Source of the DNA: Candidatus Magasanikbacteria bacterium RIFOXYC2_FULL_42_28 | Lineage (GTDB): Bacteria > Patescibacteriota > Patescibacteriia > Magasanikbacterales > GWA2-37-8 | Direction: 5' to 3' | DNA: 64,000 nt | Assembly (NCBI GenBank): GCA_001784435.1 | Contig: MFQZ01000002.1 | Span: forward strand, 12,502 to 76,501 | In this document: positions 6,387 through 42,059 of the stretch, piece by piece | Layout: every line of letters starts with the position of its first letter | How positions within the stretch are numbered: the first letter of the stretch is position 1 | The notes under the pieces: model-generated | Seen by the model: the letters and a program-made list of their open reading frames with translations, nothing else | Databases searched by the model: none | Told to the model about the DNA's origin: nothing | Program-made: the position numbers and the translations under genes

Positions 6387-6466
6387 TGTCATCCCGGACT
6401 TGATCCGGGATCTCTGTCCAACGATTTTACGAACGGACAGGGATCCCGATTTTCATCGGGATGACA
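6387..6466. repeat. GC-rich palindromic element (GPE), two units head-to-head
   Basis: TGTCATCCCGGActtgaTCCGGGATCTCTGTCC-spacer-GGACAGGGATCCCGAttttcaTCGGGATGACA. The left half is the reverse complement of the right half. Confidence 0.8.
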
Positions 6467-6480
6467 AAACGAGTGAACGA

Positions 6481-7053
6481 CTAAGCTCGCAACGATGTCT
6501 CATACACCACCTGCTCCAATTTATGCAACGCCTGTTTCGCCTGATCAAATTTATTGCGATTGTATCCGGTCAAATCCATATCTACCAGTTCACCAATAAT
6601 TTCTTCCGCTACCGCATGGCATCTTTTTACCATTGGAAAATTTTTAGCAGTCGCGGATTTAATGGCATAACGATAAAGCTCGCCCGGCAAATCACACATG
6701 CCACCAATATAGGTATCGGGCTCAATTGGCAAACCGGAAATTTTCCCCAATTCCTTGCCATCACAAAATTGCTTAAATAAATATGCTTCCACATATTCTT
6801 CCACACCGGCCAAATATGCGCCTTCATCAAACAATGCACTATCGCCTTTAAATTGTTTTTGCAAAGCCAACAACATTTTTTCCGATTGCGCCAAACATTC
6901 TTCACCAACTTTTTTATCATCGCGCTGAAAGGCAAAAATCGCTTTTTTGGCAAAATGCTGGGCATCGCCAGCGGACTTAATTACCTCCCGACGTTTGGTG
7001 CGATAGCCCAAAATTTGGGTGCGGATGGTGGCGAGATATTTTTTGTTAATCAT
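6481..7053 (-). CDS. Translin-family-like protein (tentative)
   Basis: The C-terminal motif YIGGMCDLPGELYRYAI resembles the translin/TRAX DLTGELMR catalytic-Glu motif, and the ~190 aa helical size fits. Recalled from memory, not verified. Confidence 0.35.
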   Translation of the reverse strand: MINKKYLATIRTQILGYRTKRREVIKSAGDAQHFAKKAIFAFQRDDKKVGEECLAQSEKMLLALQKQFKGDSALFDEGAYLAGVEEYVEAYLFKQFCDGKELGKISGLPIEPDTYIGGMCDLPGELYRYAIKSATAKNFPMVKRCHAVAEEIIGELVDMDLTGYNRNKFDQAKQALHKLEQVVYETSLRA

Positions 7054-7094
7054 ACGGATATCTTAAATATTAAACTTATCCACTCGCGTGGGTC

Positions 7095-7123
7095 TTGATA
7101 TTTTCTTAATAATAGTGTATCAT
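7095..7123 (+). promoter_or_regulatory. candidate sigma70-like promoter for tRNA-Lys
   Basis: TTGATA, a 17-nt spacer, then TATCAT, about 70 nt upstream of the tRNA 5' end. Confidence 0.3.
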
Positions 7124-7194
7124 ATAAACCAATGTTTTGTCTAACTCTAATTGCTTGCCACACGAGCTTGCTCGGCGTAGCGAAGCGAAGACGA

Positions 7195-7267
7195 GACCTG
7201 GTAGCTCAGCTGGTAGAGCGGCTCCCTTTTAAGGAGAAGGTCCCGGGTTCGATCCCCGGCCGGGTCA
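7195..7267 (+). tRNA. tRNA-Lys (anticodon TTT)
   Basis: Acceptor GACCTGG/CCGGGTC (one G-U pair), D-arm GCTC-AGCTGGTA-GAGC, anticodon stem GCTCC/GGAGA with loop CTTTTAA, and T-arm CCGGG-TTCGATC-CCCGG. Confidence 0.85.
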
Positions 7268-7312
7268 CTCAAAAAATCTTCACATTTATGTGATGATTTT
7301 TTTATATAGGTC
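7268..7312. terminator. candidate bidirectional terminator hairpin between tRNA-Lys (+) and the deaminase gene (-)
   Basis: A-tract, imperfect stem tcttcacat/atgtgatga, then a T-tract. Confidence 0.35.
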
Positions 7313-7325
7313 GAGTCGCATCGAC

Positions 7326-8045
7326 TTATTCCAAATCCGGCATCAAATCCTCAATGTATGTTTTATAATCACCCGCGAATTTTTTCGTATCTCCATGGCT
7401 TTTTAATAAATCTTCAATACTTATATCTTCAACAACTAGATGTTTTCGATCAACGTCGTTAACCATTACAATTCTCGTCCAAGGTTTTACCAAACCATCA
7501 TGACTCAACAGATTTAAGCATTGTCCGCAAGGATGTAACACTGCCCGCTCTTCTTTATAGGCATGTTCTGGTTGTTCTCCAGACCGCACTGTAGTGGTCT
7601 GATCTGAAGCAACAACTAAACCCACCACATCTAAGTTAGGTTCATATATATTTAATTCATCCTCCCTTTTACTTTCAAATTTTCCTTCTTGAGAAATCAA
7701 TGATCCTAAATGTAATTGTCGCAGCAGTCTTCTCTCGGCACACATTTTTGGTGGTGGCTGATTAACACTTCCCTTTAAATTCGCGTCAAAAGTTACTTTT
7801 CCTCTATCTAATCTCCGATCCCAGTAACACATACTTCCACCAACATGAAAATTTCGTGGAGATTCTGCAAACCTTTTCATGCTCATTGCAGCAGCGATTA
7901 AAGAATAATATTTATTACGCCAAAAATCAACATATTCCTGTGGCATTCCAGTAGTAATAATGTCTCTCGAAACTTGCGACTCAACTAACTTTATTAATTG
8001 TTGTATCGGCGTATATTCTTGACCTGCACCCTCTCTAATAAACAT
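7326..8045 (-). CDS. cytidine-deaminase-fold zinc enzyme with atypical architecture
   Basis: CAE (MCAERRLL) and PCGQC zinc-ligand motifs of the CDA superfamily. The inter-motif spacing is about 70 aa rather than about 30 aa, and there is a ~100 aa N-terminal extension. Confidence 0.5.
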   Translation of the reverse strand: MFIREGAGQEYTPIQQLIKLVESQVSRDIITTGMPQEYVDFWRNKYYSLIAAAMSMKRFAESPRNFHVGGSMCYWDRRLDRGKVTFDANLKGSVNQPPPKMCAERRLLRQLHLGSLISQEGKFESKREDELNIYEPNLDVVGLVVASDQTTTVRSGEQPEHAYKEERAVLHPCGQCLNLLSHDGLVKPWTRIVMVNDVDRKHLVVEDISIEDLLKSHGDTKKFAGDYKTYIEDLMPDLE

Positions 8046-8078
8046 ATAATTTAAAATATTACAGACATTATTGAAATT

Positions 8079-8480
8079 TTACCTCACCATCCTAATCGCC
8101 TCCCAATGATCAAAACCAATTTCATCAGGTGTAAGCTCGCTTAAATTTTTTATAATTACTTCTTTCGCATCGGTATCAGCTTTCAATTCCGGCATACTTT
8201 CTAAATCGATATGATATACAACTGAAATTCTTTTACCGGGTCGAGGGTCGCGATCGGGATAATCTAAAATTGTAAGTAATTTCAAATTTTCTGGTTTAAT
8301 TTTCAAACCAATTTCTTCTTCTAATTCACGCGCGCATGCACCCGCGACATTTACATCATCTTCATCAACATGTCCACCCGGCATAACAAATTTATTCATG
8401 AACGGTTCTTTAGCACGTTTAATTAAAATTATTTTTTGCTTATTAATTGTTATTAGGCCATCAGTCGTGAGAATTGGCAT
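8079..8480 (-). CDS. NUDIX hydrolase
   Basis: Nudix box GGHVDEDDVNVAGACARELEEEIGL. Confidence 0.8.
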   Translation of the reverse strand: MPILTTDGLITINKQKIILIKRAKEPFMNKFVMPGGHVDEDDVNVAGACARELEEEIGLKIKPENLKLLTILDYPDRDPRPGKRISVVYHIDLESMPELKADTDAKEVIIKNLSELTPDEIGFDHWEAIRMVR

Positions 8481-8490
8481 ACTATAAATA

Positions 8491-9048: not shown

Positions 9049-9104
9049 ATATTTATGCTTCTATTGTATCGTATTTCTCGTTATTAGTAAATGATTAATT
9101 ATTA

Positions 9105-9136
9105 GACAGAGATCCCGAATCAAGTTCGGGATGACA
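9105..9136. repeat. GC-rich palindromic element, single unit
   Basis: GACAGAGATCCCGAatcaagtTCGGGATGACA, followed by a separate terminator-like hairpin at 9145-9180. Confidence 0.8.
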
Positions 9137-9194
9137 GTTAAAACAAAAAAAATCCCTCCGAAATTCGGAAGGATTTTTGAGTCAAGGTTAAAAT

Positions 9195-10653: not shown

Positions 10654-10657
10654 AATA

Positions 10658-13402: not shown

Positions 13403-14881
13403 TCACTTAATCTTTCTTACCACCCCCGCGTACGCGTCAACTTCAACCAAATCACCTGTTTTTAAAAACTGAGTAGCAATCTTGGTCCCAATAACACAAG
13501 GGATTCCTAGTTCTCGAGAAATAATAGCGGCGTGGCAAGTAATACCGCCGTCGCTCGTGACAATAGCGGCGGCTTTTTTCATCGCCACTACAAACGATGG
13601 CGTGGTCATCATCGTAACCAATATCTCTCCTTCTCTCATTTCTGAAACTCGAGACGTTTCTAAAATAACTCTAACCAAACCCTGCGCTTTCCCCGACGAT
13701 GCCACTACGCCCTTAATTTCTTTTAAGGTTGGATCAATACGCGTTTCGCGATACTTATCAACTTCCTTGCCCCAAAATGATTTAAAAACATCTGTTCGTG
13801 AATCAAAATAAAAACCATGCATTTCATCTCTTGCCTCCAAGACACTCTCATCTGGTAATTTTCCAGTTTTTAAACCTTTGATGATTTCATCAATGCTAAG
13901 AAATACAACTTTGTCAAAACTCAATCCAAACTTCTCACCAATTGCGCACAATAATGGATAACCAAAATAATCAGTCCTCTGATAAAAGCGAACCAACTCG
14001 GTTTCAACAAAACTACTTTCAGCCAATAAATCTAATATTTTCTTATCGGCCACTTTAATTTTTAAGCGCCTAATCAATGCCTCTCTTTTTTCTCGTGACT
14101 TCTGACGATCAAAGGCCATAGTTCGCAATTTTGCTACTGGGTCACCCTTCTTGATATCATCAACAACTTCAATGTAAATATCCTCGGCAGTAGTATCTTT
14201 ACGAAGTAGAAACATGCTGTTGGCCCAATCGTATTTATTCTTAAATTCAACCAGTTCTTTTTTAACCGCCACCGGTAACTGAGAATATTTTAAATTTTGA
14301 AGTTTTAACTGTTTAATTTTTTTTGCCAAATGCAATATTTCAATTTCACGACGATAAAAAACTGACTCTCTATCAGAAAAAGAAATTTCAATCAATGTCT
14401 GCTTGGCCTCTTCTGGAGGCAGATGTCTTAGAATGTCAAAAAAAATACTTTCTAACAAATTACTTAAGCCACGGACAATATAATTACCGACCAACAAACT
14501 ACATACCGTTCTCCCGCGCAAATCAACATATTTTTTAAAATAATCTACCAAATCTTCGTTGTCGGCATTTTTCAATTTTTTATTTATTTCCACCATTACC
14601 AACGCGTTCTCTTCATCTTTCTGTCTGCGAGCATTATAAAAATCATCGAAGGTTCCTTTTTTTAATATGCGCCTAACAATTGACTTGGTATTTTTTTCAA
14701 AATCACTCTTATCATAATAATGTGCCCAATCCACATATTTATACCTTGATACTTTAAAACCAAAATCCGGGACATCTAACGTGGCTTTTTTAAGACAGAG
14801 ATAACGAATAAAAATATCGCGTGCCAAAAAAGCCCCCTTCCTTCTGGCAATCGCATACCATTTTATTTTTACTCTTGACAT
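13403..14881 (-). CDS. swivel-domain paralog 2
   Basis: C-terminus SDGGITCHAAIISRELGIPCVIGTKIATQFLKTGDLVEVDA. The N-domain carries the shared YDWANS-type motif. Confidence 0.7.
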   Translation of the reverse strand: MSRVKIKWYAIARRKGAFLARDIFIRYLCLKKATLDVPDFGFKVSRYKYVDWAHYYDKSDFEKNTKSIVRRILKKGTFDDFYNARRQKDEENALVMVEINKKLKNADNEDLVDYFKKYVDLRGRTVCSLLVGNYIVRGLSNLLESIFFDILRHLPPEEAKQTLIEISFSDRESVFYRREIEILHLAKKIKQLKLQNLKYSQLPVAVKKELVEFKNKYDWANSMFLLRKDTTAEDIYIEVVDDIKKGDPVAKLRTMAFDRQKSREKREALIRRLKIKVADKKILDLLAESSFVETELVRFYQRTDYFGYPLLCAIGEKFGLSFDKVVFLSIDEIIKGLKTGKLPDESVLEARDEMHGFYFDSRTDVFKSFWGKEVDKYRETRIDPTLKEIKGVVASSGKAQGLVRVILETSRVSEMREGEILVTMMTTPSFVVAMKKAAAIVTSDGGITCHAAIISRELGIPCVIGTKIATQFLKTGDLVEVDAYAGVVRKIK

Positions 14882-14919
14882 ATTATTTTGACTGTCAGTT
14901 AAATTTTAAATATCATCAT

Positions 14920-16413
14920 TTAGGCCCGTCCTAAAATTTTAACTAGGCCGGTGGCCGCATTGACTTCCAATAAATCACCATCGTGAATTATCCGAGTTCC
15001 ATTCATCGTAGCGATAACGCAAGGCACGCCCAGTTCGCGCGACACAATCGCCGCGTGCGAAGATAGCCCACCTTGGTCCGCCACAATCACCACTGCTTTT
15101 TCCATCGCTGGCACAAAATCGGGTGTGGTAAATTGCGCCACAAGAATATCCCCACGCAAAACTTTGTTAATTTCTTTTTTATCCATACAAATTTTCGCTC
15201 GACCAGTAATAATTCCACCAATGCAAGCGACTCGCCCTTGAATTGAATTCACCGCCGTATTGTCAACGGAATATTCTTTTTCCAATTCTTTTATTTTAAC
15301 CGGATCAGTAATCAAGGTAGTTTCAGAATCGCGTGCTAACATCGCGTAATTATGAAAACGAGCGTTCATTTCTTTTTCATCGGGTAGTGGCTTACCGGCC
15401 AAAGCACCAAACATTTCCGGAATTGATACCTCCATTATCCAATCAGGGTTAAAATGCGCGCGCTTGGCAATTTCCGCGTACATAAAACTGGCACCATAAT
15501 CCGCATTGAAAAATGCTTCCACGCGACGATTGCGAACATAGGAGTGAAGCTTGGCTTGGTCAATAATATGTTGGAAGTCAGGACGCGGTTTAATTTTATC
15601 TAATGCCCACGCATATTCATCGGCAACTTTTTGCTCGGAAGCATCATAAATCAAATCATCAATCTTTTTACCTTCACTAACCTGATGTTTCATTTCTTTC
15701 AAGCGATCGACAATATCGTCAAAATCATATGGCTTACTTGTAGCCAAACCACGGTTAATATAAGCAAACCTATCTAAATGCACGTCAATTTTTGCTGTCG
15801 CCTCGGCGGATAAATTATCCAAATCTTCATTGGCTGAAAAAAAATCTTTTGCAATCTGGGCTAATTTCCAACGTTCCTCACTGACTTCGGTCATCTGTTT
15901 TGGGTCAGTAAAAATCAAAACACATTTACGAAAATCGGGATCAGAAGCGGAAATATACTCCAACAACTTTGTTTCAATAGTTGATTCAAAATATTCATCC
16001 AAAGGATATTGCGCATACCAAGGGCCAGCCAAAACACGATACTCTTGCAATAATGGCTCTAAAATGCCAGCTATTTCCTCATTTGTTTTTTCTAACCAAT
16101 CAGTTTTCTTATATACCAAACCTTGTTTATACAAATGTTCATCTTGCTTTAACTCGCGATCGCAATATTTTTCAAACCAACCATCATCGGCTTGAGCATG
16201 CCCGATAATTTCCGCTTCAAATGGATCATATTCTTCTTGACGCCAATACATCATGTGATTTAAATAGGTACGATTAGGCATTGAAGTGCGTATGTCGGCT
16301 TTTTCCATGATTTCCTTCGTAAATGCCGAATTTATCATAAAACGAAGAAAAATGGGGAGTTTCCCCGATGGTTTAATTCTGTATTTTCCCGAACGCATTA
16401 CTGCTCCTGGCAT
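14920..16413 (-). CDS. swivel-domain paralog 3
   Basis: C-terminus DQGGLSSHAAIVSRELGVPCVIAT...GDLLEVNA. Confidence 0.7.
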   Translation of the reverse strand: MPGAVMRSGKYRIKPSGKLPIFLRFMINSAFTKEIMEKADIRTSMPNRTYLNHMMYWRQEEYDPFEAEIIGHAQADDGWFEKYCDRELKQDEHLYKQGLVYKKTDWLEKTNEEIAGILEPLLQEYRVLAGPWYAQYPLDEYFESTIETKLLEYISASDPDFRKCVLIFTDPKQMTEVSEERWKLAQIAKDFFSANEDLDNLSAEATAKIDVHLDRFAYINRGLATSKPYDFDDIVDRLKEMKHQVSEGKKIDDLIYDASEQKVADEYAWALDKIKPRPDFQHIIDQAKLHSYVRNRRVEAFFNADYGASFMYAEIAKRAHFNPDWIMEVSIPEMFGALAGKPLPDEKEMNARFHNYAMLARDSETTLITDPVKIKELEKEYSVDNTAVNSIQGRVACIGGIITGRAKICMDKKEINKVLRGDILVAQFTTPDFVPAMEKAVVIVADQGGLSSHAAIVSRELGVPCVIATMNGTRIIHDGDLLEVNAATGLVKILGRA

Positions 16414-16530
16414 ATAATTTTAGGTTAAATGTTGATTATATATTACACCTATATTTATATTACACCTTTTTTAAAATTCTGACAAATCAATTAACACGGT
16501 GGCCTGATAAATCCAAGTTATAAAAAATAA

Positions 16531-17760
16531 TCAAGAATAAGTATAGCCAGGGACAATTTGAATATCTTGAATTTCTGTTTCTTTAAGGCTATTCATTAAC
16601 GAACCGAGACATCCTGACGTTTTCGTCGGTAATTCTGTTACTATGTCAAAATCAACACCTGGATCATCACGCCAATCAAACCCGCCGACAAATTTAATAT
16701 CTTGTAAACCAAATGATTTTAGTAAGCCAGTAAATTCGTTAAAATACGTATACGGAAGCCTTGATGTGGCTTCGGCTGATATCACAAAGTAAGTATCTCC
16801 TTGCCTACCAACGCGCTTCACCCTTTCGATGGTTTGTGCCATTTTTGACTCTTCTTCAACAATGACGAGCGGCCCGCGATGTTCACTAAAAACGCGGTCA
16901 AACTTTGCTATGAGCTCCGAGCGTTCGGCTGGGGTCTTAGCATTTTTTTTACCAAATTGATCATAGTAATCCAAAAAATATGGATGTACTGCTCCCAAAA
17001 TATGCTCCGGTTCTTTTTTTTCAGTTGATTCCTGTTGTTGATTATGTTCCAATTTTAAAATTGCGCCAGGCACTTCCACCAAACCCATTGATTCATATTT
17101 TCGAATAAGCTCGCGAAACTTTTCATTTTGACGTACCGCAGTCTTAGTATCAGGATTAAGAACAGTTGTCTCGCTTGGAATACTATTCGCTAATTCAATT
17201 AAAAATTTATATTCAGTTGGTGACAATAGAACTGCATCTTCAAAAAATCTGGAAAAATGATCGGGGTCACGGTCAATGCCAAAAAGTTTTGGCACAAAAT
17301 TTTTTCCAAAATGCATGTAGATAACGAGGTCATTCGAAATACGAAACTGGCCGGGTAAATTTGGATCACTTGAAACTTTGCCGATCTCTATTATGGCTGG
17401 CACGCCCCGATCATTTCCTTTGTCTTCAAGGACAACCGCAAACGACCCTTCCAAACTATCACGATCCAATCTTGAATAATTATGAGATTTTTTTACAATT
17501 TCTACAAACGTTTTACTGATACGGGGATCTAAATTTTCCGGCTTGATAAAGCGGGTAAATAATGAACAACGACCAACATTATTTCCATCGATATCGCGAT
17601 CTTTAAGCGAACTTGAGCAGTAAACGTCGGAATATTCTCTAGTTCTATCAAATGTCCAGCCCGGATCAGGCACCGTTGTGATGGTGCCTTTTTGATCTGC
17701 CGGCGCAATATCAACCAAACTTTTTTCATCTGTTGGATGTCCAATATCACGTCTGCGCAT
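16531..17760 (-). CDS. hypothetical protein embedded in the swivel cluster
   Basis: 409-aa ORF with no motif I can recognise. Confidence 0.3.
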   Translation of the reverse strand: MRRRDIGHPTDEKSLVDIAPADQKGTITTVPDPGWTFDRTREYSDVYCSSSLKDRDIDGNNVGRCSLFTRFIKPENLDPRISKTFVEIVKKSHNYSRLDRDSLEGSFAVVLEDKGNDRGVPAIIEIGKVSSDPNLPGQFRISNDLVIYMHFGKNFVPKLFGIDRDPDHFSRFFEDAVLLSPTEYKFLIELANSIPSETTVLNPDTKTAVRQNEKFRELIRKYESMGLVEVPGAILKLEHNQQQESTEKKEPEHILGAVHPYFLDYYDQFGKKNAKTPAERSELIAKFDRVFSEHRGPLVIVEEESKMAQTIERVKRVGRQGDTYFVISAEATSRLPYTYFNEFTGLLKSFGLQDIKFVGGFDWRDDPGVDFDIVTELPTKTSGCLGSLMNSLKETEIQDIQIVPGYTYS

Positions 17761-17794
17761 ATGATAATATATATTTTACCAAAGTGAAATTAAT

Positions 17795-21364: not shown

Positions 21365-21365
21365 A

Positions 21366-22853: not shown

Positions 22854-22855
22854 AA

Positions 22856-24388: not shown

Positions 24389-24418
24389 ACCGCCATGAAT
24401 TCTTAGTCGGCGATTTAA

Positions 24419-25459: not shown

Positions 25460-25508
25460 AAAAAATTAAGGTTAAATATAATCGTCTCATTTTTATGTCT
25501 TAATTGTA

Positions 25509-26927: not shown

Positions 26928-26932
26928 AATTG

Positions 26933-28432: not shown

Positions 28433-28437
28433 ATGGT

Positions 28438-29367: not shown

Positions 29368-29385
29368 ATATTTTATGGTTAAAAA

Positions 29386-30837
29386 TTAAACCTTTTTAAT
29401 TACTTTTATTATACCACTATTAGCATCAACTTCAACCATGTCACCATCTTTCAAAATTGAAGTTGCGACTTGAGTGCCAATTACGCATGGAATACCAAGT
29501 TCTCGCGCTACTATCGCGGCGTGGCATGTTATACCACCCTCATCAGTTATAATAGCGACCGCCTTCTTCATAAGCGGTAAATACTCCGGTCTGGTCATTG
29601 GCGCCACTAAAATATCACCTGATTTCATTTTATTAAAATCTGCAGGAATTTTAATAACTTTAACAGTGCCAACGATAATACCCCGACTGGCCGATTGACC
29701 CTTTAATTCCTTAAATTGATTGTTAAATTGTTGTTCAAGTATTTTTAAAAACTCAACACATTCCCTACCGGTTAATACCACAGTTTTGTTATTGCGATCA
29801 CAATAATATATACTTTTTTTCGCGCGATTGGCTAATTCTTTTTTATAAGATTGGCCAAAATTCAAACGAGTAGAAAATATTTCTTCCGGCACAGCAAACA
29901 AAACATGTTTGTAAGGCGTACCGGCACGACGAGCAAATTCCTGCGCAAATAAATAATAATAACCAACCCCAATCATCGCTTCCCTTTTTCGTTCATCACG
30001 CCAATAACCCATACGGCGAAAAAAATAAAAAATATTATCCACCTCTTTGGGTAAACGCAATTCTTTCAACAAATTTCGACGATTCTCATTTTTATTTGAA
30101 TGTTCTAATTTAATCTTTTTAATTTTTCGTGTAATTTCTGACAGATGAATTTTTAACAATTTTTCAAAATTTTTAGTAAAATAATCTAATTTCAAAGTAG
30201 TCGCATGCGCCCAATCACGTTGAAGCCAAAAATATTTCTGTTGATGAAATTGTAGTAATGTGCCTCGCTTATTTACTGGAGACATCCTAACGTTTAACAA
30301 ACCTAATTCTTCTTGCTGTGTTAACGTCATCTCCTTCGGGGTCGTAATTAAAACCAGATCATCTGGTTTAATAGTTAAATTATATTTATTTATAACATCA
30401 TTAATTATTTTATCCCCCCATGGGTCAAACGCTTCAATATGAACACTAATAACCCACGACTGGTAATCAGCATTAACAAATTTCTTATACAAATTCAATA
30501 AATGCGACAAACTAAGTTTTGATAAATCTCTCAATTCTATATACTTAACAAGTGAATTTCTTTCATTTATGCAATTTTCCCAAGTAGTTATTTTAGAATC
30601 TATATAACGGCGATCGCGACTTTGTTTGACGATATCCGCATTTCCAGCTTTCAGCTCAGCTAAACTGTTAAAATACCCACGATGCATAACCCCATCTTGA
30701 TGGACTATAAGGTTTTTTTTGCCCCACAATTTCATACCAGAATAAAATGGAACAATAAAATAAAATGGCACGCCTGCTCCACCTTGCCGATACCAATTCA
30801 CTGTTTTAATATAATTTAAATCAATACCCGAAAGCAT
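29386..30837 (-). CDS. swivel-domain paralog 10
   Basis: C-terminus DEGGITCHAAIVARELGIPCVIGT...GDMVEVDA. The N-domain carries QQKYFWLQRDW. Confidence 0.7.
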   Translation of the reverse strand: MLSGIDLNYIKTVNWYRQGGAGVPFYFIVPFYSGMKLWGKKNLIVHQDGVMHRGYFNSLAELKAGNADIVKQSRDRRYIDSKITTWENCINERNSLVKYIELRDLSKLSLSHLLNLYKKFVNADYQSWVISVHIEAFDPWGDKIINDVINKYNLTIKPDDLVLITTPKEMTLTQQEELGLLNVRMSPVNKRGTLLQFHQQKYFWLQRDWAHATTLKLDYFTKNFEKLLKIHLSEITRKIKKIKLEHSNKNENRRNLLKELRLPKEVDNIFYFFRRMGYWRDERKREAMIGVGYYYLFAQEFARRAGTPYKHVLFAVPEEIFSTRLNFGQSYKKELANRAKKSIYYCDRNNKTVVLTGRECVEFLKILEQQFNNQFKELKGQSASRGIIVGTVKVIKIPADFNKMKSGDILVAPMTRPEYLPLMKKAVAIITDEGGITCHAAIVARELGIPCVIGTQVATSILKDGDMVEVDANSGIIKVIKKV

Positions 30838-30838
30838 A

Positions 30839-32314
30839 CTATTTCCTTATAATTCGAACTGAATTATGGTTGGCGTTAACTTCTACCAAATCACCATCTT
30901 TTAATAATTTAGTGGCAAATTTTGTGCCCACCACACAGGGAATTCCGAGCTCGCGCGAAACAATCGCGGCGTGACACATTACCCCGCCTTCGTCTGTTAT
31001 AATCGCACCGGCACGACGCATTGCCGGCACATAATCAGGACTCGTCATCGAGGCTACTAAAATATCACCCTGTTCAACTTTATTTACTTCATTAGCGCTA
31101 TGAAGCACTTTCACTTTACCACTGCAAAATCCCGCCGAGGCAATTATCCCATCGAGTTTGCCGGTACTAACTTCTTCCGGCAATAAATATTCTGCCATGC
31201 GAGCATCAGGATCGTTTAATTTAACATCGATATTCTTGCCTTGCCACCAAACATAACAATGCTTTTGGCGCTGTTCTAAAATTTCTTTTAAAATAATTTT
31301 GCCTGTTTTCAAAGCTAAAAATACTTCTTGCGGTAAATAATACTGCACTAACTCCCTTTTTATTCCTAAACGTCGACCAGTTTCAGCTAATATCCTCTCC
31401 GCCCAAAAATGTACTTGGGTAAATATTTCTTTTTTATAATCCATCAAATATCCACCTTGGCGCATAATTTTAAAATATGCGCGATACTCTGGTGAAATTT
31501 TTAATTCTTTTTCTAAACCCCGCTGGCGGATTGATAAATTTTTAAAATATTTTTCGCTCGATTTTATTTTTTCTGCCAATTTAGGATTTTTTATCATTAA
31601 ACGTAAAACTTCGGTAAAATATTTTTCATTCCAGATATACATTCCATAATCAAATGGTACCCAAAAATATTGACGGGTGTGATTTTTTATTACTAATTTT
31701 TTATTTTTTATTTTGTTATTACGAATTTTTAATGCCAACTTCGTCAAATCATCTTCTTCGCGTTTTACAAATGATTTTTCTGCTGGCGATACTAATATGT
31801 TATACATCGCCGAGTAATCTTGTCGATCGCCGTTTATCAATTTTTTCAGATAGTCAAATAATAACGGAGAAAGTTTTTCTTCTAATAATATTACTAACGG
31901 TTCGCTACAGATATAAGCGGCTTCATACATCTGTAAATATTGTTTCCAAAATTGAGATAATTCTGCATTAGAAAATTTTGACAAATCTTTCGTACTGACA
32001 TTTTTAACAAAAGTTAATAAACTATTAGACAACTTTGTGAATAATTTACTATTTTTTTTAATTAAATTTGGATCACTTTTTAGCTGATAAATTAATTCTT
32101 CAGCTGAACTTTTAATTTGACTACTTGAGGCGTACCAATACATAACATTATCCCGGTACACACATCTCGTCTCGCCAAAACTTTTCCCGCGCAATACGTT
32201 TTTCAAACCATAAGTAAAAACATGCCCGATGACATAAACATTGGGAAATATAAATACATTTTCTTTTCTTTGTTTAAAGATATAATCTCTTAACATACTT
32301 AAATATAATATCAA
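30839..32314 (-). CDS. swivel-domain paralog 11
   Basis: C-terminus DEGGVMCHAAIVSRELGIPCVVGT...GDLVEVNA. The N-domain carries TRQYFWVPFDY. Confidence 0.7.
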   Translation of the reverse strand: MILYLSMLRDYIFKQRKENVFIFPNVYVIGHVFTYGLKNVLRGKSFGETRCVYRDNVMYWYASSSQIKSSAEELIYQLKSDPNLIKKNSKLFTKLSNSLLTFVKNVSTKDLSKFSNAELSQFWKQYLQMYEAAYICSEPLVILLEEKLSPLLFDYLKKLINGDRQDYSAMYNILVSPAEKSFVKREEDDLTKLALKIRNNKIKNKKLVIKNHTRQYFWVPFDYGMYIWNEKYFTEVLRLMIKNPKLAEKIKSSEKYFKNLSIRQRGLEKELKISPEYRAYFKIMRQGGYLMDYKKEIFTQVHFWAERILAETGRRLGIKRELVQYYLPQEVFLALKTGKIILKEILEQRQKHCYVWWQGKNIDVKLNDPDARMAEYLLPEEVSTGKLDGIIASAGFCSGKVKVLHSANEVNKVEQGDILVASMTSPDYVPAMRRAGAIITDEGGVMCHAAIVSRELGIPCVVGTKFATKLLKDGDLVEVNANHNSVRIIRK

Positions 32315-32362: not shown

Positions 32363-34288
32363 CTATTCATCTATATTCTCCACTCGATTTGGCAAAATTG
32401 TTCTTGGCTGGGTTGGACGAGTGATTGACATGTTTCTAGGCTCGCTTTGCTCGCTCGGAACACCAAGGCTTCGCCGTGCTACGCCCCGCGAACCAGGACC
32501 AACAGAGTTTGATTTTGGTTGAAGTGATGACAGTGACATCCCCTTTTCGTTTGGATCTGTTAAAATTATTGGAGTGGGGCTACCAAAAGAATTACTGGCT
32601 TGATCATTTTTATGGCGATTGCGGTGGCGTTTTTTTTTAGGTGGTTGCGTGCCGAATTGAGGTTGTGCAATAGGTCGCGGTAAGGAATTGCTTACCGACT
32701 TAGTTGGGATCGGAATGATAGTTGAGCCAGAGATCCCGACTTTCGTCGGGATGACAGGCGAAGTTGGTGCACGGGATAGAGATTCCTCCTTCGGCGTCGG
32801 AATGACAAACGCATGCTTAACCGAAACCACCCCCTCGCCCCCTCCTTGAAAAGGAGGGGAAATTGACGGCGATTTAATTGGTACCGGTGCTTTTTCAAAC
32901 ATCGCCTCGTCATCATCTACTTCCAATTCCGATGCATCGTCATCGTTCATAATCACCATCCCACTCCAGCGCGCAATTTTATCTTCAATCTTATCTTTCG
33001 GCACGGCATAGCGTTCACGCGACACGCGCACTACTTTTTCTTGGCTATGCGTGGTTTGAGCAATGGGTGGCAAAGTTAAGGCGGAAAAGGGTTTACTCGC
33101 AATCCCATCAATCATTAATTTTAAATAAATATGATACTTGGGCAAATTCACCAGGTCCTCTTCAATAAAAGTTGGAATAAATTCTTTGGCCAAAATTTCC
33201 GCGTCCGTGGATCCAACCCGAAATGTTACCATCGTGCCCACGTTGCCGATGACCGCGGCCAACACTTCTTCTTCTAACTGTTCCATATACTGATGCGCCA
33301 TAATCAAATCCAAACGATATTTACGCGCTTCGGATAAAATATTAGCAAAACTTTCCGTGGCAAAATTTTGAAATTCATCAACATACAAAAAGAAATCTTT
33401 GCGATCTTTTTCCGGCGTGTCTACCCGCTCCATCGCGGCCAACTGTAATTTAGTGATAAGCATGCCACCCAAAAGCCGTGAATTATCTTCACCAATTCGG
33501 CCTTTAGCCAAATTCATGATTAAAATCTTTTTGTTATCCATTATTTCGCGAATATCAATGCGCGATTTAACCTGCGCCACAATATTGCGAATAACCGAGG
33601 CGGATAAAAATTGACCGATTTTATTTTGAATAGGGGCAACAGCTTCCTGGCGATATTTATCATTGTAAGCGGCGAATTCTGTCTGCCAAAACGCTTTCAC
33701 CACCGGATCTTTTAAATTGGCCACGACGCGTTTACGATAATCCGCGTCCGCGAGCAAGCGGTTGATACCAAGTAAAGTCGTACCGGGAAAATCCAATAAC
33801 GCCAAAATAGTATTGTTCAAAATATATTCCATACGCGAACTCCAAACATCCGGCCAGATTTTTTTAAACACACCCATTAGCCCCGACGCGACCAAATGTT
33901 TGTATTCCGGGCGCACGGTTTCTAAAATATTAAAACCGATTGGAAAATCAATGTCCGAGGGATTAAAATATATCACATCGTTGATGCGATGAGGCGGAAT
34001 GAAATCAATAATTTTTTCCGCGAAATCGCCGTGCGGATCAACTAACCCCACACCATGCCCGGCATAAATATCGTTCAAAACCATGTTTTCCAAAATCGTC
34101 GTCTTACCCATGCCAGTTTTGCCCACCACATACATATGGCGACGACGGTCATCAACTTTAATGCCAAATTTACGATTTTGATTACGATAATTTACCAAAC
34201 CAAAAAAATTGATCTCGGGGTTAATCGCGACCAAGGATTTTGGTTCTGCCGGAGCTGGTGTTATCGGTTGATCAAATTCGTCGGACAT
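32363..34288 (-). CDS. soluble VirD4/TrwB-like (type IV coupling protein family) P-loop ATPase with low-complexity C-terminal tail
   Basis: Walker A YVVGKTGMGKTT followed by GLVDPHGDF, compared with TrwB GxTGxGKS...VDPNGD. No N-terminal TM. The C-terminal ~200 aa is Pro/Ser-rich and hosts in-frame GPE copies. Confidence 0.5.
   Translation of the reverse strand: MSDEFDQPITPAPAEPKSLVAINPEINFFGLVNYRNQNRKFGIKVDDRRRHMYVVGKTGMGKTTILENMVLNDIYAGHGVGLVDPHGDFAEKIIDFIPPHRINDVIYFNPSDIDFPIGFNILETVRPEYKHLVASGLMGVFKKIWPDVWSSRMEYILNNTILALLDFPGTTLLGINRLLADADYRKRVVANLKDPVVKAFWQTEFAAYNDKYRQEAVAPIQNKIGQFLSASVIRNIVAQVKSRIDIREIMDNKKILIMNLAKGRIGEDNSRLLGGMLITKLQLAAMERVDTPEKDRKDFFLYVDEFQNFATESFANILSEARKYRLDLIMAHQYMEQLEEEVLAAVIGNVGTMVTFRVGSTDAEILAKEFIPTFIEEDLVNLPKYHIYLKLMIDGIASKPFSALTLPPIAQTTHSQEKVVRVSRERYAVPKDKIEDKIARWSGMVIMNDDDASELEVDDDEAMFEKAPVPIKSPSISPPFQGGGEGVVSVKHAFVIPTPKEESLSRAPTSPVIPTKVGISGSTIIPIPTKSVSNSLPRPIAQPQFGTQPPKKKRHRNRHKNDQASNSFGSPTPIILTDPNEKGMSLSSLQPKSNSVGPGSRGVARRSLGVPSEQSEPRNMSITRPTQPRTILPNRVENIDE
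32706..32807. repeat. GC-rich palindromic elements inserted in-frame in a CDS (two or three units)
   Basis: cagAGATCCCGActttcgTCGGGATGACAgg and GGATAGAGATTCCtccttcggcgtcGGAATGACAaa, translated on the minus strand as ...FVIPTPKEESLSRAPTSPVIPTKVGISGS... Confidence 0.75.
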
Positions 34289-34297: not shown

Positions 34298-34392
34298 AAA
34301 ATTTCAAAATCCAAATTTCCAATTTCCAATCAAATCAAAATGTCAAATATCAAATTTTGACATTGGAAATTGGAAATTTGACATTATCGTAT
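34298..34392. repeat. AT-rich palindromic element, TTTCCAATTTCC family, copy 2
   Basis: aaatttcaaaatccaaatttccaatttccaat...cattggaaattggaaatttgacatt. Confidence 0.7.
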
Positions 34393-36279: not shown

Positions 36280-36289
36280 AAATATATAA

Positions 36290-36425: not shown

Positions 36426-36828
36426 TTGCTAAATCCTTAACACTAATCTCACCTGGATTTTTAATTATAGAATGGACACTGCCACCACCATCACCGGTAT
36501 AGCGTGGCAAAATGTGCCAGTGCACATGCGGCACAGCTTGACCAGCAACTGGCGCATTATTAATGCCGATATTCATACCATCCGGATTTAAGCGCGCTTG
36601 CACTCGCCCGGCGGCAGCGCGCAACCCAACTGATAAAAGTTGAAAATCCTCTACGCTCATACTCCAAATATTTTCAAAATGTTTTTTGGGGACTACCACG
36701 GTATGGCCTTGGGCGTGCGGAAATACGTCTAAAAATGCTAAACAATTTTCATCTTCATAAACGGTGTAATTGGGAATTTGACCAGCGATGATTTTGCAAA
36801 ATATACAATCCATACAATTAATTTTCAA
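36409..36828 (-). CDS. HIT family protein (histidine triad nucleotide-binding)
   Basis: HIT motif HVHWHILPR. Confidence 0.85.
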   Translation of the reverse strand: MKINCMDCIFCKIIAGQIPNYTVYEDENCLAFLDVFPHAQGHTVVVPKKHFENIWSMSVEDFQLLSVGLRAAAGRVQARLNPDGMNIGINNAPVAGQAVPHVHWHILPRYTGDGGGSVHSIIKNPGEISVKDLASKFKS

Positions 36829-39037
36829 TTACTAAAATATCTCCAAATTTTTTAACAATTGCTTTATTATTATACCTCACTTCTCCTTCTTTTACCACCC
36901 CAAAACAACGACTCGCGCCGGTCAGTATTTTACTGTCCGCGAGTATTGCTTCGGCACTGCGCATTTTAAATTTATTAAATAATTGGACGCGTTCGGGTTG
37001 AGCAAAATTTTGGCCCATGGGAAATCCACCACCGATTATGGTTTTTGCGGAAATTGCTTCCAGGGCTAGTAGCGGATAAGTGTCAGCCAAGACACAGGGG
37101 CGCCGAGATTGCTTCTCTTCGCTCGCAATGACAGAATATACATAATCCATGGCCTGATATTCATCACGGCTGACCGTTTTAGCGTCTGGACCGAGAGAAT
37201 ATGAGGCGGTAATCGCGAGAGAGATAATAAAAATAATAAACAACAACGCGATAGATTGCTCCCCGCCAGAGGCGGACAGGCGTCTGATCCTCGCAATGAC
37301 AAAGTTGATTGCACCCGCTACCATTATGATGGCAAGCCAGGCCAAAACCACATCTAACCGGCGCGCTAATAAATTATCGCCAGTTAAAAAATAACGAGAA
37401 ATAATATTGCCGGACATTAGACCGAGAAATAATAGGGCAAGTAATTTTTGTCGCGGGCGATAGATTGCTTCGTCAGCGCCGGTGGCACCTCCTCGCAATG
37501 ACAAAAAGGCACCGAACAATGTCACGAACCAAAATAAAATCGCAAATCCAACCAGCCACCAGCGCCATTGCATTAGAATATTCACGACAAACGCGTAAGA
37601 CGGCGCTTGATTAAATAAAATATTTCCGGACGCGATGTCATGCGGACGCGGGCCACTTGCAAAATAATACGCGGAAAAATTACCAACGGTCTGTTGCGCT
37701 TGGCCGAGCCAATTTATATTAGGATTAAATTGTGAGTAATTGGTGATGAGTTCAATAATGGGGATGGATAGAGCAACGAGAATAAAAACCAACGGAAAGA
37801 TAAAAATAGATTGCCGCGTCGCTGCGCTCCTCGCAATGACAAAGTAAACCATCCACGCCAACCAAAATAAAATAAAATATAACGTATAACCAAAAATTAA
37901 TAACACGCCGGCAATTGCCAAAAATAGTATCCCTAATTTTTCGCCAACCGGACGCTTAACAATCATTAACAATAAAAACAGCCAAAATAAAAAATCGATA
38001 TTAACCGGCAAGGTGGTGGCGCCGGCAATTTGCAAGCCAAATGGCAAAAATCCCAACCAAACTAAAAATAATGATTCGGATTTCTTCCACCCCAAAGCCC
38101 TCCCCCATTCAAACGCCAAAATCGGAAAAAATAACGCCCACAAAATCGGCCCGAACCAGCGATTAAAACTCATTAAATCAAAATTGAAAAAAGTTTTGCC
38201 GATTATGCCCAATGACCAAAATTGCGCGTAACCCAATCGACCAATATCTAATTTTTGCCAAAAATTGGATTCGCCTATGGGAGCAACAGTTGAAAAACTA
38301 TTTCCCGCCACCAAATTTAATTCCTGTCCCAAATGCCGCCAACTATCGGCATTATAAAAATACTCATGTGTGGCTGGCAAATAACTGGTAAGCAAAAATG
38401 CGTGCGCGCAAAGTAAAAACAACACCACCTTGGCTGGTAATTTCGCAAAACATAAAAATCCTAAAACTAAAGTAGCGGCGCCGAACCAATAAATATAGGC
38501 GGACGGTAAAATTTGCCAAGGGGTAACAGGGCTTGGCTGCGTTACACCCTGTAAACCGTCAGTGCCAATTGTAAATAATTGATGGGCGGTAATTAACCAC
38601 AAAACAACATACAAAAACACCCCAGCTTTGTTGCGTGGCATTTCCTGCAAAATTTTCAAATTATCATCAAACCAAGCCAGCATTTCTGACTCCTCTTGAT
38701 TCTCTCTCCAAAAAATCAAAGGCAATAACCCTGCCCCAAATAGCGCCAAAGCCACGCTAAGGGGCGTAAAATGATAGAAACACAGCGAAAGCCCAATGAT
38801 CCACCCGGCGCTCATAAGCGCTCCCAAGGCCGCCAAGAGCCGTACACGCAAAGCGCGTGGTGAAAAATCAAATCTAACAACTAAAATTCGGCGCCACCAT
38901 TTGGCTGTAATTAGCCAATAAAATAAAAAAATGGCGCTTTTTTGCCAAGTAGGCGCGTTATAAAATAATAAAAAAAATATCAAACCGGATATAATAAATA
39001 GGCCCAATAACTTTTTGGAAAACACGCGAAAATTCAT
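36818..39037 (-). CDS. large polytopic membrane protein (about 20 TM; possible lipid-linked glycosyltransferase-like) carrying four in-frame GPE insertions
   Basis: Hydrophobic throughout. No catalytic motif recognised. Confidence 0.4.
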   Translation of the reverse strand: MNFRVFSKKLLGLFIISGLIFFLLFYNAPTWQKSAIFLFYWLITAKWWRRILVVRFDFSPRALRVRLLAALGALMSAGWIIGLSLCFYHFTPLSVALALFGAGLLPLIFWRENQEESEMLAWFDDNLKILQEMPRNKAGVFLYVVLWLITAHQLFTIGTDGLQGVTQPSPVTPWQILPSAYIYWFGAATLVLGFLCFAKLPAKVVLFLLCAHAFLLTSYLPATHEYFYNADSWRHLGQELNLVAGNSFSTVAPIGESNFWQKLDIGRLGYAQFWSLGIIGKTFFNFDLMSFNRWFGPILWALFFPILAFEWGRALGWKKSESLFLVWLGFLPFGLQIAGATTLPVNIDFLFWLFLLLMIVKRPVGEKLGILFLAIAGVLLIFGYTLYFILFWLAWMVYFVIARSAATRQSIFIFPLVFILVALSIPIIELITNYSQFNPNINWLGQAQQTVGNFSAYYFASGPRPHDIASGNILFNQAPSYAFVVNILMQWRWWLVGFAILFWFVTLFGAFLSLRGGATGADEAIYRPRQKLLALLFLGLMSGNIISRYFLTGDNLLARRLDVVLAWLAIIMVAGAINFVIARIRRLSASGGEQSIALLFIIFIISLAITASYSLGPDAKTVSRDEYQAMDYVYSVIASEEKQSRRPCVLADTYPLLALEAISAKTIIGGGFPMGQNFAQPERVQLFNKFKMRSAEAILADSKILTGASRCFGVVKEGEVRYNNKAIVKKFGDILVIEN
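37105..37842. repeat. four GC-rich palindromic element copies (ATTGC/GCAAT stem variant) inside a CDS
   Basis: Copies at 37105-37134, 37251-37302, 37460-37504 and 37806-37842. Each reads (G)ATAGATTGC-variable GC-rich hairpin-CTCGCAATGACA(A)AG. Three are translated as FVIAR... (a shortened VIAS version at the first copy), and the third copy in a different frame as FLSLRGG.... Confidence 0.8.
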
Positions 39038-39102
39038 ACCACCCTATTATACAAAACTATGCACACTTTATCAACACCACTCCCCTTGCGGGTAAATGAT
39101 GG

Positions 39103-40581: not shown

Positions 40582-40594
40582 CGCAACACACGCC

Positions 40595-40688
40595 TGTCAT
40601 TTCGAATCCCCCGTCGCAGTGGGGTGAGAAATCTCCATCTCGACGGGATAGAGATCCCTCGTCGGTGCGAACCTCGCTCGGGATGACA
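40595..40688. repeat. GC-rich palindromic element, complex copy
   Basis: TGTCATTTCGAA...cgacGGGATAGAGATCCCtcgtcg...CTCGGGATGACA. Confidence 0.7.
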
Positions 40689-40721
40689 AAATAAAAAAAT
40701 TAATTTTTAAATTAAAAATAT

Positions 40722-41027
40722 ATGAGCATGCTAGGAAAACTCAAGCAGTTTAAAGATTTACGCGAACAGGGTAAAAAAATGCAATCGTTATTAAAAGATG
40801 AAGCTACGACCGCAACTTCGGCCGGTGGAAAAGTCGCAGTGACCTTGGATGGAAATTTGCAAATGTCCGGATGTGCGATTGATACCAGCCTGTTAGTTGC
40901 GTCCGAAAAATCGAAATTAGAAAATGCAATAAAAGACGCACACAACGATGCTTTGAAAAAAATCCAGCGCGTGATTGCGACCAAGATGCAAGAGTCAGGT
41001 GATTTTAAAATGCCAGGTTTTAATTAA
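40722..41027 (+). CDS. ybaB: nucleoid-associated protein YbaB/EbfC
   Basis: About 100 aa, KLKQFKDL...MQ start and a C-terminal ...FKMPGF motif typical of YbaB. Adjacent to recR. Confidence 0.8.
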   Translation: MSMLGKLKQFKDLREQGKKMQSLLKDEATTATSAGGKVAVTLDGNLQMSGCAIDTSLLVASEKSKLENAIKDAHNDALKKIQRVIATKMQESGDFKMPGFN

Positions 41028-41624
41028 ATGTATTCCCAATCCATCGACAAACTAATTGCCGAATTAAAAAAATTGCCATCGGTGGGCCAACATACCGCCG
41101 AACGGTATGTTTTTCATTATTTAACTCGGGGCAAACGCGAAGTGGCGGATTTGATTTTGAGTTTAAATGGATTAATTAATAATGTAAAAAGTTGCGAAGT
41201 GTGCTGGGATTTTACCGATACGAGCCCGTGCAGAATTTGTTCGGATCCAAAACGTGATCAATCCGTGCTGTGCGTGGTCGCGGATTCGCAATCAGTTGTT
41301 GCATTACAAAAAACCGGCGCCTTTATCGGACGCTATCATGTTTTGCGCGGGGTATTAGATGGTAGTGACCCGGAAAGTTTTAGACGAATTAAATTAAAAG
41401 AATTATTTAATCGATCTGTAAAAGATAAAAATTTGAAGGAAATTATTTTGGCGCTTAATCCGGATTTGTCTGGTGAGACGACGATGTTGTATTTGGAAAA
41501 AGAATTACGTACAAAAAATCCAACAATCAAAATTGTGCGCCTGGCACGCGGATTACCATCGGGTAGTGATTTGCAATACGCCGATGAGATTACCTTGGAG
41601 AGCGCGTTGAAAAATAGGAGGTAA
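41028..41624 (+). CDS. recR: recombination protein RecR
   Basis: HhH LPSVGQHTAERYVFH, a C4 zinc finger CEVCWDFTDTSPCRIC and a Toprim domain. Confidence 0.9.
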   Translation: MYSQSIDKLIAELKKLPSVGQHTAERYVFHYLTRGKREVADLILSLNGLINNVKSCEVCWDFTDTSPCRICSDPKRDQSVLCVVADSQSVVALQKTGAFIGRYHVLRGVLDGSDPESFRRIKLKELFNRSVKDKNLKEIILALNPDLSGETTMLYLEKELRTKNPTIKIVRLARGLPSGSDLQYADEITLESALKNRR

Positions 41625-41628
41625 AAAA

Positions 41629-41647
41629 ATCCCGACTAAGTCGGGAT
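41629..41647. terminator. bidirectional rho-independent terminator, CCCGACTAAGTCGGG family
   Basis: aaaaaaATCCCGACTAAGTCGGGATtaaattttt, between convergent recR and rplU. Confidence 0.7.
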
Positions 41648-41667
41648 TAAATTTTTCTATTGCTTCT

Positions 41668-41973
41668 TTACGCGAATTTCACTTCGGTAAATCTTTGGCG
41701 CTGACCGTGGACTTTATGGTAGCGCACTTTGCGTTTGAATTTTTCTACGCGCAAGGTTCGGTTCTTGCCTTGGCGCACGACATTGGCTTCTACTTTGACG
41801 CCATCCAAATACGGCGTGCCGACTTTGGCATTACTGCCATCGTCGTCAGCCATAAGCAAAACTTTATCAAAATTAACTTTGTCGCCGGCAACGACTTCTA
41901 ATTTTTCAATTTTTAACACTTCGCCATTCTTGACTAAGTATTGTTTTCCGCCGGTTGCAATTACTGCTAACAT
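41668..41973 (-). CDS. rplU: 50S ribosomal protein L21
   Basis: MLAVIATGGKQYLV...RQGKNRTLRVEKFKRKVRYHKVHGQRQRFTEV. Confidence 0.9.
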   Translation of the reverse strand: MLAVIATGGKQYLVKNGEVLKIEKLEVVAGDKVNFDKVLLMADDDGSNAKVGTPYLDGVKVEANVVRQGKNRTLRVEKFKRKVRYHKVHGQRQRFTEVKFA

Positions 41974-41993
41974 ATAATAATATCAACTTAATT

Positions 41994-42059
41994 GTCATGC
42001 TGAACTTGTTTCAGCATCTCCTGAAAATCACGGGATCCTGAAACAAGTTCAGGATGACA
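41994..42059. repeat. GC-rich palindromic element, ATGCTGAA/ATCCTGAA stem variant, double hairpin
   Basis: TGTC-ATGCTGAActtgtTTCAGCAT-ctcctgaaaatcacggg-ATCCTGAAacaagTTCAGGAT-GACA. Confidence 0.75.

Follow-up and report, generated by a model that had tools for sequence, protein, structure and literature searches.

We analysed a 64,000-nt stretch of DNA (the window; all positions are counted from its first letter) from the genome of Candidatus Magasanikbacteria RIFOXYC2_FULL_42_28, a candidate-phyla-radiation bacterium from groundwater, and found that it carries 13 copies of a palindromic repeat of 31-54 nt. The general form of a unit is G-AT[palindrome]AT-GACA, or TGTCAT-palindrome-ATCTCT when read on the opposite strand. 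These units are very probably Ssn-related motifs (SRM) of the NTS/dRS3 type, that is, putative recognition sites in single-stranded DNA (ssDNA) for Ssn, a GIY-YIG nuclease of ~94 aa. An earlier description of this DNA made without database searches (the sequence-only reading) had proposed a dispersed, REP-like palindromic family with compensatory stem changes, which our analysis upholds, and had matched its consensus to no named family; the family does have a name, NTS/dRS3-type SRM, in the work of Chenal et al. (2025, Nat Commun 16:2388; PMC11893778).

In that study the Neisseria dRS3 repeat was extended to an oriented sequence, NTS (CGTCATTCCCGCGMAVGCGGGAATCYRG), and NTS was then generalised as SRM, inverted repeats of 20-50 nt that can fold into a hairpin as ssDNA. 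The enzyme SsnA is a 94-aa single-domain GIY-YIG protein (CDD family cd10448) that binds NTS only as ssDNA and cuts a few nucleotides 5' of the hairpin, on one strand only; it cut neither the complementary strand nor double-stranded DNA nor RNA, and the RNA version was not bound either. Mutagenesis identified GTC 5' of the palindrome as the determinant of cleavage and C 3' of it as the determinant of binding, while the SsnA mutants Y6A, Y17A and E64A were inactive. In N. meningitidis, SsnA lowered transformation by NTS-bearing DNA about five-fold and reduced the integration of incoming repeat-bearing DNA, and homologues of further Neisseria species and of Wolbachia cut their own motifs. An SRM was found near 71% of ssnA homologues, and on both sides of 42% of them (PMC11893778).

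The window units share the architecture of these sites. Placed in a common frame, NTS reads CGTC-ATTCCCGCG..CGCGGGAAT-CYRG and the window sequence reads TGTC-ATCCCGG..CCGGGAT-CTCT, and in all 13 units, read on the TGTCAT strand, the GTC before the palindrome and the C after it are invariant. As in the NTS/dRS3/SRM system, the repeat is an oriented hairpin with an AT-bounded palindrome, GTC before it and C after it; it is present in many dispersed and clustered copies with a wide phylogenetic spread; and, in the family at large, convergent units flank a gene for a ~94-aa single-domain GIY-YIG protein. The window differs in its host, a candidate-phyla-radiation bacterium, and in its stems, which are not the Neisseria ATTCCC/GGGAAT.

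To locate the units we scanned both strands for [AG]GAT followed by a hairpin stem of at least 5 bp and ATGACA. This returned 15 matches in the window, corresponding to 13 distinct units, whereas 200 dinucleotide-preserving shuffles of the window gave 0.64 matches on average and never more than 4. A covariance model (R1), built from the window units together with copies of other genomes and run with filters off, recovered exactly these 13 units, with E-values of 5e-11 to 0.0012 and the next match at E = 5.5. The units are dispersed and clustered over 36 kb, 13 where 0.64 would be expected, and the R1 search detected none elsewhere, neither in the other 22 kb of the window nor in 20 kb of flanking DNA. 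It could be argued that the units are products of chance or of the composition of an AT-rich genome, and the shortness of each unit, though nothing else, speaks for this; the excess over the shuffles, the model E-values (5e-11 to 1e-3) and the recurrence of the same consensus at hundreds of loci all speak against it. The shuffle counts and E-values refute this explanation, and we regard its probability as negligible.

The scan also bears on what the sequence-only reading had recorded. Every copy it placed is present in the sequence, its terminal ATGACA is found in 13 of 13 units, and the compensatory stem variants it cited are correct (ATCCCGA/TCGGGAT, ATTCC/GGAAT, ATTGC/GCAAT, ATCCTGAA/TTCAGGAT and ATGCTGAA/TTCAGCAT). 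Its copy at 32706-32807 resolves into two units, 32726-32756 and 32775-32807, leaving no scorable unit at 32706-32725. The lead-in GA(C/T)AGAGAT, said to be common to all copies, occurs in only five of the 13, the only invariant position there being the G before the stem AT. The units and the two genes that host some of them are as follows.

6387..6418, plus strand: SRM unit, short hairpin (TGTCATCCCGG ACTTGA TCCGGGATCTCTGTC) forming the left half of a doublet; as DNA it folds at -8.4 kcal/mol (z -4.2); the sole unit that fits the published SRM search string (6387-6415).
6436..6466, minus strand: SRM unit, short hairpin, right half of the same doublet; z -4.2.
6387..6466, no strand: convergent doublet, a forward and a reverse SRM 17 nt apart, located between translin-family and Mur-ligase open reading frames (ORFs); fold -24 kcal/mol, z -5.9.
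9105..9136, minus strand: solitary SRM unit, short hairpin, in the spacer between MntP and zinc-finger ORFs; z -4.2.
32726..32756, minus strand: SRM unit, short hairpin, lying in frame within the C-terminal tail of a TrwB/VirD4-like ORF; found by scan, model and fold.
32775..32807, minus strand: SRM unit, long form ATTCC/GGAAT, in frame in the same TrwB/VirD4-like ORF tail; found by scan and model, folds no better than shuffles.
37101..37133, minus strand: SRM unit, long form ATTGC/GCAAT, in frame in a 739-aa membrane-protein ORF, peptide VIASEEKQSRR; scan and model.
37248..37301, minus strand: SRM unit of the long form, read in frame within the same 739-aa ORF, peptide VIARIRRLSASGGEQSI; scan and model.
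37457..37503, minus strand: SRM unit of the long form, in frame within the same 739-aa ORF through a different frame of the unit, peptide SLRGGATGADEAIY; scan and model.
37803..37841, minus strand: SRM unit of the long form, also in frame within the 739-aa ORF, peptide VIARSAATRQSI; best model score, 48.6 bits.
40595..40639, plus strand: SRM unit of the long form (ATTTC/GAAAT) that makes up the left half of a doublet downstream of dnaB; scan and model.
40647..40688, minus strand: SRM unit, long form ATCCC/GGGAT, right half of that doublet, upstream of a YbaB-like ORF; scan and model.
41993..42024, plus strand: SRM unit, short hairpin ATGCTGAA/TTCAGCAT, left half of a doublet; z -3.7.
42028..42059, minus strand: SRM unit, short hairpin ATCCTGAA/TTCAGGAT, right half of that doublet; z -3.7, whole doublet z -10.6.
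36818..39037, minus strand: host gene, 739-aa multi-pass membrane protein with four in-frame units in length-variable loops; ORF and homologue comparison.
32363..34288, minus strand: host gene, TrwB/VirD4-like coupling-protein ORF with two in-frame units in a low-complexity C-terminal tail; ORF and domain evidence.

Two forms of the unit can be distinguished. The six short units are perfect hairpins of 8-9 bp with loops of 4-5 nt, which fold well as ssDNA, with energies of -6.1 to -8.5 kcal/mol and z-scores of -3.7 to -4.3 against shuffles. In the seven long units the stem is limited to 5 outer bp (AT followed by three pairs that vary), which enclose a GC-rich insert of 12-33 nt. The insert typically begins with TTCG, CACG or CGCG and ends with CTC; an insert of this kind between 5-bp arms is a further difference from NTS/dRS3/SRM.

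To evaluate the stem beyond this genome, we searched a genome collection with a pattern that leaves the inner stem free (AGAGAT NNN YNCG N4-34 CTC NNN ATGACA). The matches listed span at least dozens of phyla, including Patescibacteria, Bacteroidota, Chloroflexota, Omnitrophota, Thermodesulfobacteriota, Planctomycetota, Fibrobacterota and Atribacterota, and in 115 of the 134 matches listed all three free stem positions were Watson-Crick paired, compared with ~5% expected. The stem versions comprise TGC/GCA, which is dominant, together with CGC/GCG, TCT/AGA, TCC/GGA, TAC/GTA and CTT/AAG. In an alignment of 69 sequences pre-filtered for a paired stem, 41 outer-stem changes were two-sided and none one-sided, all of them from one Watson-Crick pair to another and none involving G.U; because that alignment was selected for a paired stem, the unbiased pairing figure is that of the 134-match scan. 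The covariance model identified 233 copies in 100 loci, often clustered, and copies were present on viral contigs; a viral-contig scan for the short form (AGAGAT-N-YCAAG-N-ATGACA) gave chance matches only. Literature searches for the motif strings and the encoded peptides returned primer and chemistry noise only. The wider search that the sequence-only reading had left to be run thus produced many further copies, and pairing was kept beyond chance. That reading had gone on to conclude that the hairpin, not the sequence, is conserved. The part concerning the pairing stands, and the remainder is overstated, given that the flanking GTC and C are invariant, that the ATTGC/GCAAT stem version is dominant across phyla, that the seven long units are not stable hairpins, and that altering the palindrome while keeping the hairpin abolished the activity of Neisseria SsnA (PMC11893778).

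Covarying stems are also what recommends a structured RNA motif acting after transcription, whether as a hairpin that regulates in cis, as a site of processing, as a stabiliser of mRNA or as a ribozyme, and some distal loops (TTCG, TGCG or GAGA) and some phage copies that lie just upstream of Shine-Dalgarno-like purine runs point in the same direction. We nevertheless consider an RNA function very unlikely. Rfam 15 gave no match at gathering scores and only generic long-hairpin hits at E <= 10; relative to transcription the units point either way, and they also form inverted doublets; no G.U pair appears among the 41 stem changes; many loops are of 3 nt, a size more usual in DNA hairpins; the stem is not followed by a T-run; and the published enzyme leaves the RNA version both unbound and uncut (PMC11893778). 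Kink-turns, UNCG or GNRA loops and small ribozymes were dropped on the lack of an Rfam match, the lack of G.U pairs, the mostly 3-nt loops and the published inactivity on RNA. RNA-seq for processed fragments, which had been suggested as a check, would be off target because the published enzyme acts on ssDNA and not on RNA.

The identification as SRM draws further support from the genes that accompany the units. When ORFs between distant inverted units were examined, a small GIY-YIG gene (PF01541) was found exactly between a forward and a reverse unit at three loci (L172, L229 and L135). We then measured the association in a sample of 80 metagenome loci that had been fetched solely for encoding a GIY-YIG relative of 92-97 aa. 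A unit lay within 200 nt of the GIY-YIG gene at 66 of the 80 loci and on both sides of it at 54 (the corresponding published figures are the 71% and 42% given above); the layout was convergent at 28, typically with ~30 nt between unit and gene upstream and ~10 nt downstream. Beside the gene there were 6.4 units per kb, compared with 0.59 per kb in the rest of these loci, an 11-fold difference, and the commonest type of unit beside the gene was the long form. The proteins have PF01541 as their sole domain, are 92-97 aa long, have invariant Y6, Y17 and E63, and are carried by candidate-phyla-radiation lineages such as Uhrbacteria and WWE3. At one locus (L435) a member of the same protein family is flanked by ATTCCCGC..GCGGGAAT, the arms of the Neisseria NTS palindrome. 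Among entries of the Protein Data Bank the nearest were UPF0213 proteins, a weak match (E = 2.6e-6), and a comparison with NCBIfam gave one sub-threshold homing-endonuclease hit. At L135 (2700-2850; Falkowbacteria), an unrelated insert, long and palindromic, splits the ssn-like GIY-YIG gene that lies between convergent units.

These genes also bear on a REP/REPIN reading, in which a REP-associated tyrosine (HUH, Y1) transposase (RAYT) would mobilise the units, as in Escherichia coli and Pseudomonas. There are resemblances to the REP/BIME/REPIN and RAYT systems of Enterobacteria and Pseudomonas: both consist of short hairpin repeats recognised as ssDNA, with inverted doublets, clusters and one small repeat-flanked enzyme gene, and both invite the idea of a domesticated mobile element. 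In the window, moreover, hairpin repeats lie between same-strand genes and inverted doublets fold into long hairpins, and BIME-like clusters occur in other genomes. However, the gene between inverted units encodes a GIY-YIG nuclease and not an HUH/Y1 transposase (no search aimed at Y1 was made), the conserved tag is GTC/C and not GTAG, and the consensus spans phyla whereas REP families are lineage-specific. The REP/RAYT explanation was dropped after the GIY-YIG genes had been found between distant inverted units, and we judge it highly unlikely.

Several observations weigh against the identification of the window units as SRM and against its extension to function. The published SRM search string, HGTCWYN(0-2)YYVSBRHN(0-5)WNVSBRGN(0-2)RNCYNB, fits only one of the 13 units, and the other 12 fail through stem composition or a long insert. 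This string was derived by hand from 29 genomes of four phyla (PMC11893778), and for that reason we treat it as a search aid and not as a definition. The long form folds at the level of shuffles (z -0.5 to +0.6), and its outer stem is supported by covariation across genomes only. The GIY-YIG protein family of the metagenome loci is putatively tied to SsnA by size, domain, catalytic residues and context. A protein profile search detected no ssn-like gene in the window and loci L446 and L448, which together make up ~84 kb of this genome; this is, so far, another difference from the published system, and it leaves the cognate enzyme in this organism unproven. Finally, it is only in Neisseria that a role in transformation has been demonstrated. 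Taking these points together with the shared frame, the invariant GTC and C, the cross-phylum covariation and the adjacent GIY-YIG genes, we still consider SRM of the NTS/dRS3 type to be the probable identity of the units.

The placement of the units differs from that in N. meningitidis. Seven of the 13 lie in spacers between same-strand genes, and the other six lie inside ORFs whose frames they keep open, four in the 739-aa membrane protein and two in the tail of the TrwB/VirD4-like protein; in N. meningitidis, only 2% of NTS copies are intragenic (PMC11893778). The sense strand of all six intragenic units is the TGTCAT...ATCTCT strand, which has no stop codon in any frame, while the opposite orientation carries TAG and TGA. 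A comparison of 22 homologues showed that the intragenic units of the membrane protein lie in poorly conserved loops of varying length. Other homologues have unit-type peptides at different positions (e.g., VIPTEVEIS, VIPSEARADEESLS, SLREVAQATKQS and EIATAFGLAMT), no units were found in the gene for the 732-aa orthologue in a relative (L121), and the L121 orthologue of the TrwB/VirD4-like ORF has two units of its own. By a rough count, ~20% of the units in other genomes are embedded in long open frames. Intragenic copies may thus be tolerated in length-variable loops, with only frame-keeping copies surviving, and the TGTCAT strand would be found as the sense strand because it is the one that is stop-free in every frame.

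Alternatively, the intragenic copies could have been selected for the peptide they encode, as a protein-level module comparable to a short repeat domain. Six units are indeed translated in frame in two proteins, and similar peptides recur among homologues, but a single protein uses different frames of the unit (VIAR..QSI and SLRG..DEAIY), the same units are also present in non-coding spacers, and the sites are confined to poorly conserved, length-variable loops and tails. Because different unit frames are used within the membrane protein (VIARSAATRQSI and SLRGGATGADEAIY), no particular peptide is selected, and we find selection for the peptide extremely unlikely. Two variants of the membrane protein were also observed. 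Protein P0040 (SRR3989339 assembly), of 683 aa, is without the stretch between two intragenic units (window 37101-37301), and its junction falls within a unit (FVIAS-V-EKQSRR), pointing either to recombination between units or to an assembly artefact at the repeat; variant P0039 diverges into a different unit-type peptide, SLRGAQRRGNL.

Insertion of this kind recalls the Rickettsia palindromic elements (RPE; Ogata et al. 2000), which are reportedly palindromic, selfish-looking repeats that lie in frame in genes and are translated as extra loops. RPE are ~100-150 bp long and have their own consensus. The likeness to the window lies in the in-frame insertion, with six units keeping two ORFs open, and the difference lies in size, as the window units measure 31-54 nt. 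Rickettsia is also among the SRM-rich genera (PMC11893778).

Three pairs of units in the window form inverted doublets with their GACA ends outward (6387-6466, 40595-40688 and 41993-42059), and two of these (6387-6466, z -5.9; 41993-42059, z -10.6) fold into long hairpins. The halves of the doublet at 41993-42059 differ by a compensated G:C to C:G swap, which keeps the stem of each unit intact and adds mismatches to the doublet-long hairpin. The layout of the doublets is convergent as in SRM-ssn-SRM, with the gene absent from the interior. The same orientation predominates beyond the window: convergent pairs of adjacent units (forward then reverse) outnumber pairs in the opposite order by 76 to 15, or ~5:1. 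A translin-family ORF (6481-7053, minus strand; PF01997, E = 1.4e-16) adjoins the doublet at 6387-6466, which may be coincidence; translin binds nucleic acids and is not common among bacteria.

Insertion-site polymorphism, which had been named as a check on the family, was seen among relatives both in spacers and in the membrane-protein family. In the syntenic region dnaB - ybaB - recR - L21 - DUF192, the window has doublets after dnaB and after L21. The same region of L121 has a single doublet, between ybaB and recR, and no unit after dnaB; that of a second relative, L125, has a doublet after dnaB that differs from the one in the window at this position and is nearly identical to window 6387-6466. 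The doublet at 41993-42059, in the L21/DUF192 spacer, is absent from both L121 and L125. Comparison of doublets with these relatives showed no visible target-site duplication at the doublet ends. A different, AT-rich repeat, TTTAGATTTTAGATGTCAGATTTTAGATATAG, lies together with inverted copies in spacers at L121 13140-13180 and L125 7550-7630; at these places the window is without a unit or has a doublet.

The resemblance of NTS-ssnA-NTS to an insertion sequence was noted by the authors of the original study, who compared it with REP/RAYT and offered the idea of an insertion-sequence-like element as a hypothesis only (PMC11893778). Extending this idea, we tentatively suggest that SRM-ssn-SRM cassettes, together with doublets and units lacking the gene, may constitute an uncharacterised class of mobile elements that move via ssDNA with a GIY-YIG nuclease, that have colonised most bacterial phyla, and that in candidate-phyla-radiation bacteria are routinely found in frame inside proteins; we hold this to be possible, though somewhat short of probable. 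The site polymorphism between relatives, the 5:1 convergent bias, the gene exactly between units and the cross-phylum consensus would fit such a class, without showing movement. Two points count against it: no exact empty sites were recovered, as the spacers of L121 and L125 are too diverged for boundaries to be drawn, and the comparisons that suggest mobility of the units are all between species.

Under the proposed mechanism, the TGTCAT-palindrome-ATC strand would fold when single-stranded, and Ssn would bind the hairpin and cut a few nucleotides 5' of it. Cuts upstream of both convergent units would then land just outside the ends of a doublet, as expected of a nuclease acting on element ends. 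Solitary units and doublets would be non-autonomous derivatives of the SRM-ssn-SRM cassette, spreading and persisting wherever they are tolerated, including in length-variable protein loops. If the genome has a cognate Ssn, this enzyme may cut units that become single-stranded during DNA uptake, replication or transcription, and such cutting would affect the recombination of ssDNA.

Other known elements share some of these features. The ends of IS200/IS605 elements and integron attC sites are likewise functional only as folded ssDNA, with one strand being read and with conserved bases at the foot of a variable hairpin. They differ in their enzymes, which are an HUH transposase and a tyrosine recombinase, respectively, and in their own consensus sequences; in addition, IS200/IS605 ends lie on the same strand and are not convergent, and attC sites are arrayed between cassettes. 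Correia elements are miniature inverted-repeat transposable elements of Neisseria, ~100-155 bp long, with 26-bp terminal inverted repeats and a TA duplication. Like the window units they are abundant small repeats with inverted ends, in their case in a naturally competent bacterium, but they are unrelated in sequence, and the units have no visible target duplication.

Several further features of the window were noted. Most of the window has negative GC skew (28 of 32 bins of 2 kb), the cumulative skew falls almost steadily, and genes lie mostly on the minus strand. The forward (cleavable) strand of the units is the minus strand in nine of 13 cases, including all units outside inverted doublets, although these numbers are small and confounded with gene orientation. 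Positions 9146-9180, ~10 nt from the unit at 9105-9136, contain a terminator-like hairpin bordered by runs of A and T (AAAAAAAATCCCTCCGAAATTCGGAAGGATTTTTG), and a long hairpin at 34304-34388, upstream of the TrwB/VirD4-like ORF, matched only generic miRNA-precursor models below threshold and is not a unit. On the minus strand at 13403-32314 there is a tandem array of about ten paralogous ORFs of ~470-510 aa; each of the six ORFs scanned ends in a PEP-utilising-enzyme mobile domain (PF00391) and has no other recognised domain. The array is interspersed with a Fic-domain ORF (24419-25459) and a histidine-phosphatase ORF (28438-29367), and the same arrangement is present in L121.

The kind of repeat described here, SRM, is already known from the 2025 publication, and what is particular to the window is that copies lie in frame inside genes, that a long form occurs and that the published string has poor sensitivity. 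Since this string detects only one of 13 units here, SRM counts in such lineages are probably large underestimates. For annotation, the identification provides a name and a biochemical partner for a repeat that is very common in uncultivated bacteria and that likely inflates hypothetical-protein predictions and breaks assemblies. Half of the copies in this genome are translated as extra loops of membrane and coupling proteins, as with RPE and unlike the 2% in N. meningitidis. Peptides such as VIARSEATKQS, SLRGAKRRSNL, CHCEERSDEAIS and DCFVASLLAMT are very common in hypothetical-protein databases, and if the proposed mobile class is real, it would be their source. If the cassette is truly mobile, it would represent a type of transposon with a nuclease not previously known in that role, and each variant unit would be a pointer to a possible new ssDNA-cutting specificity for biotechnology.

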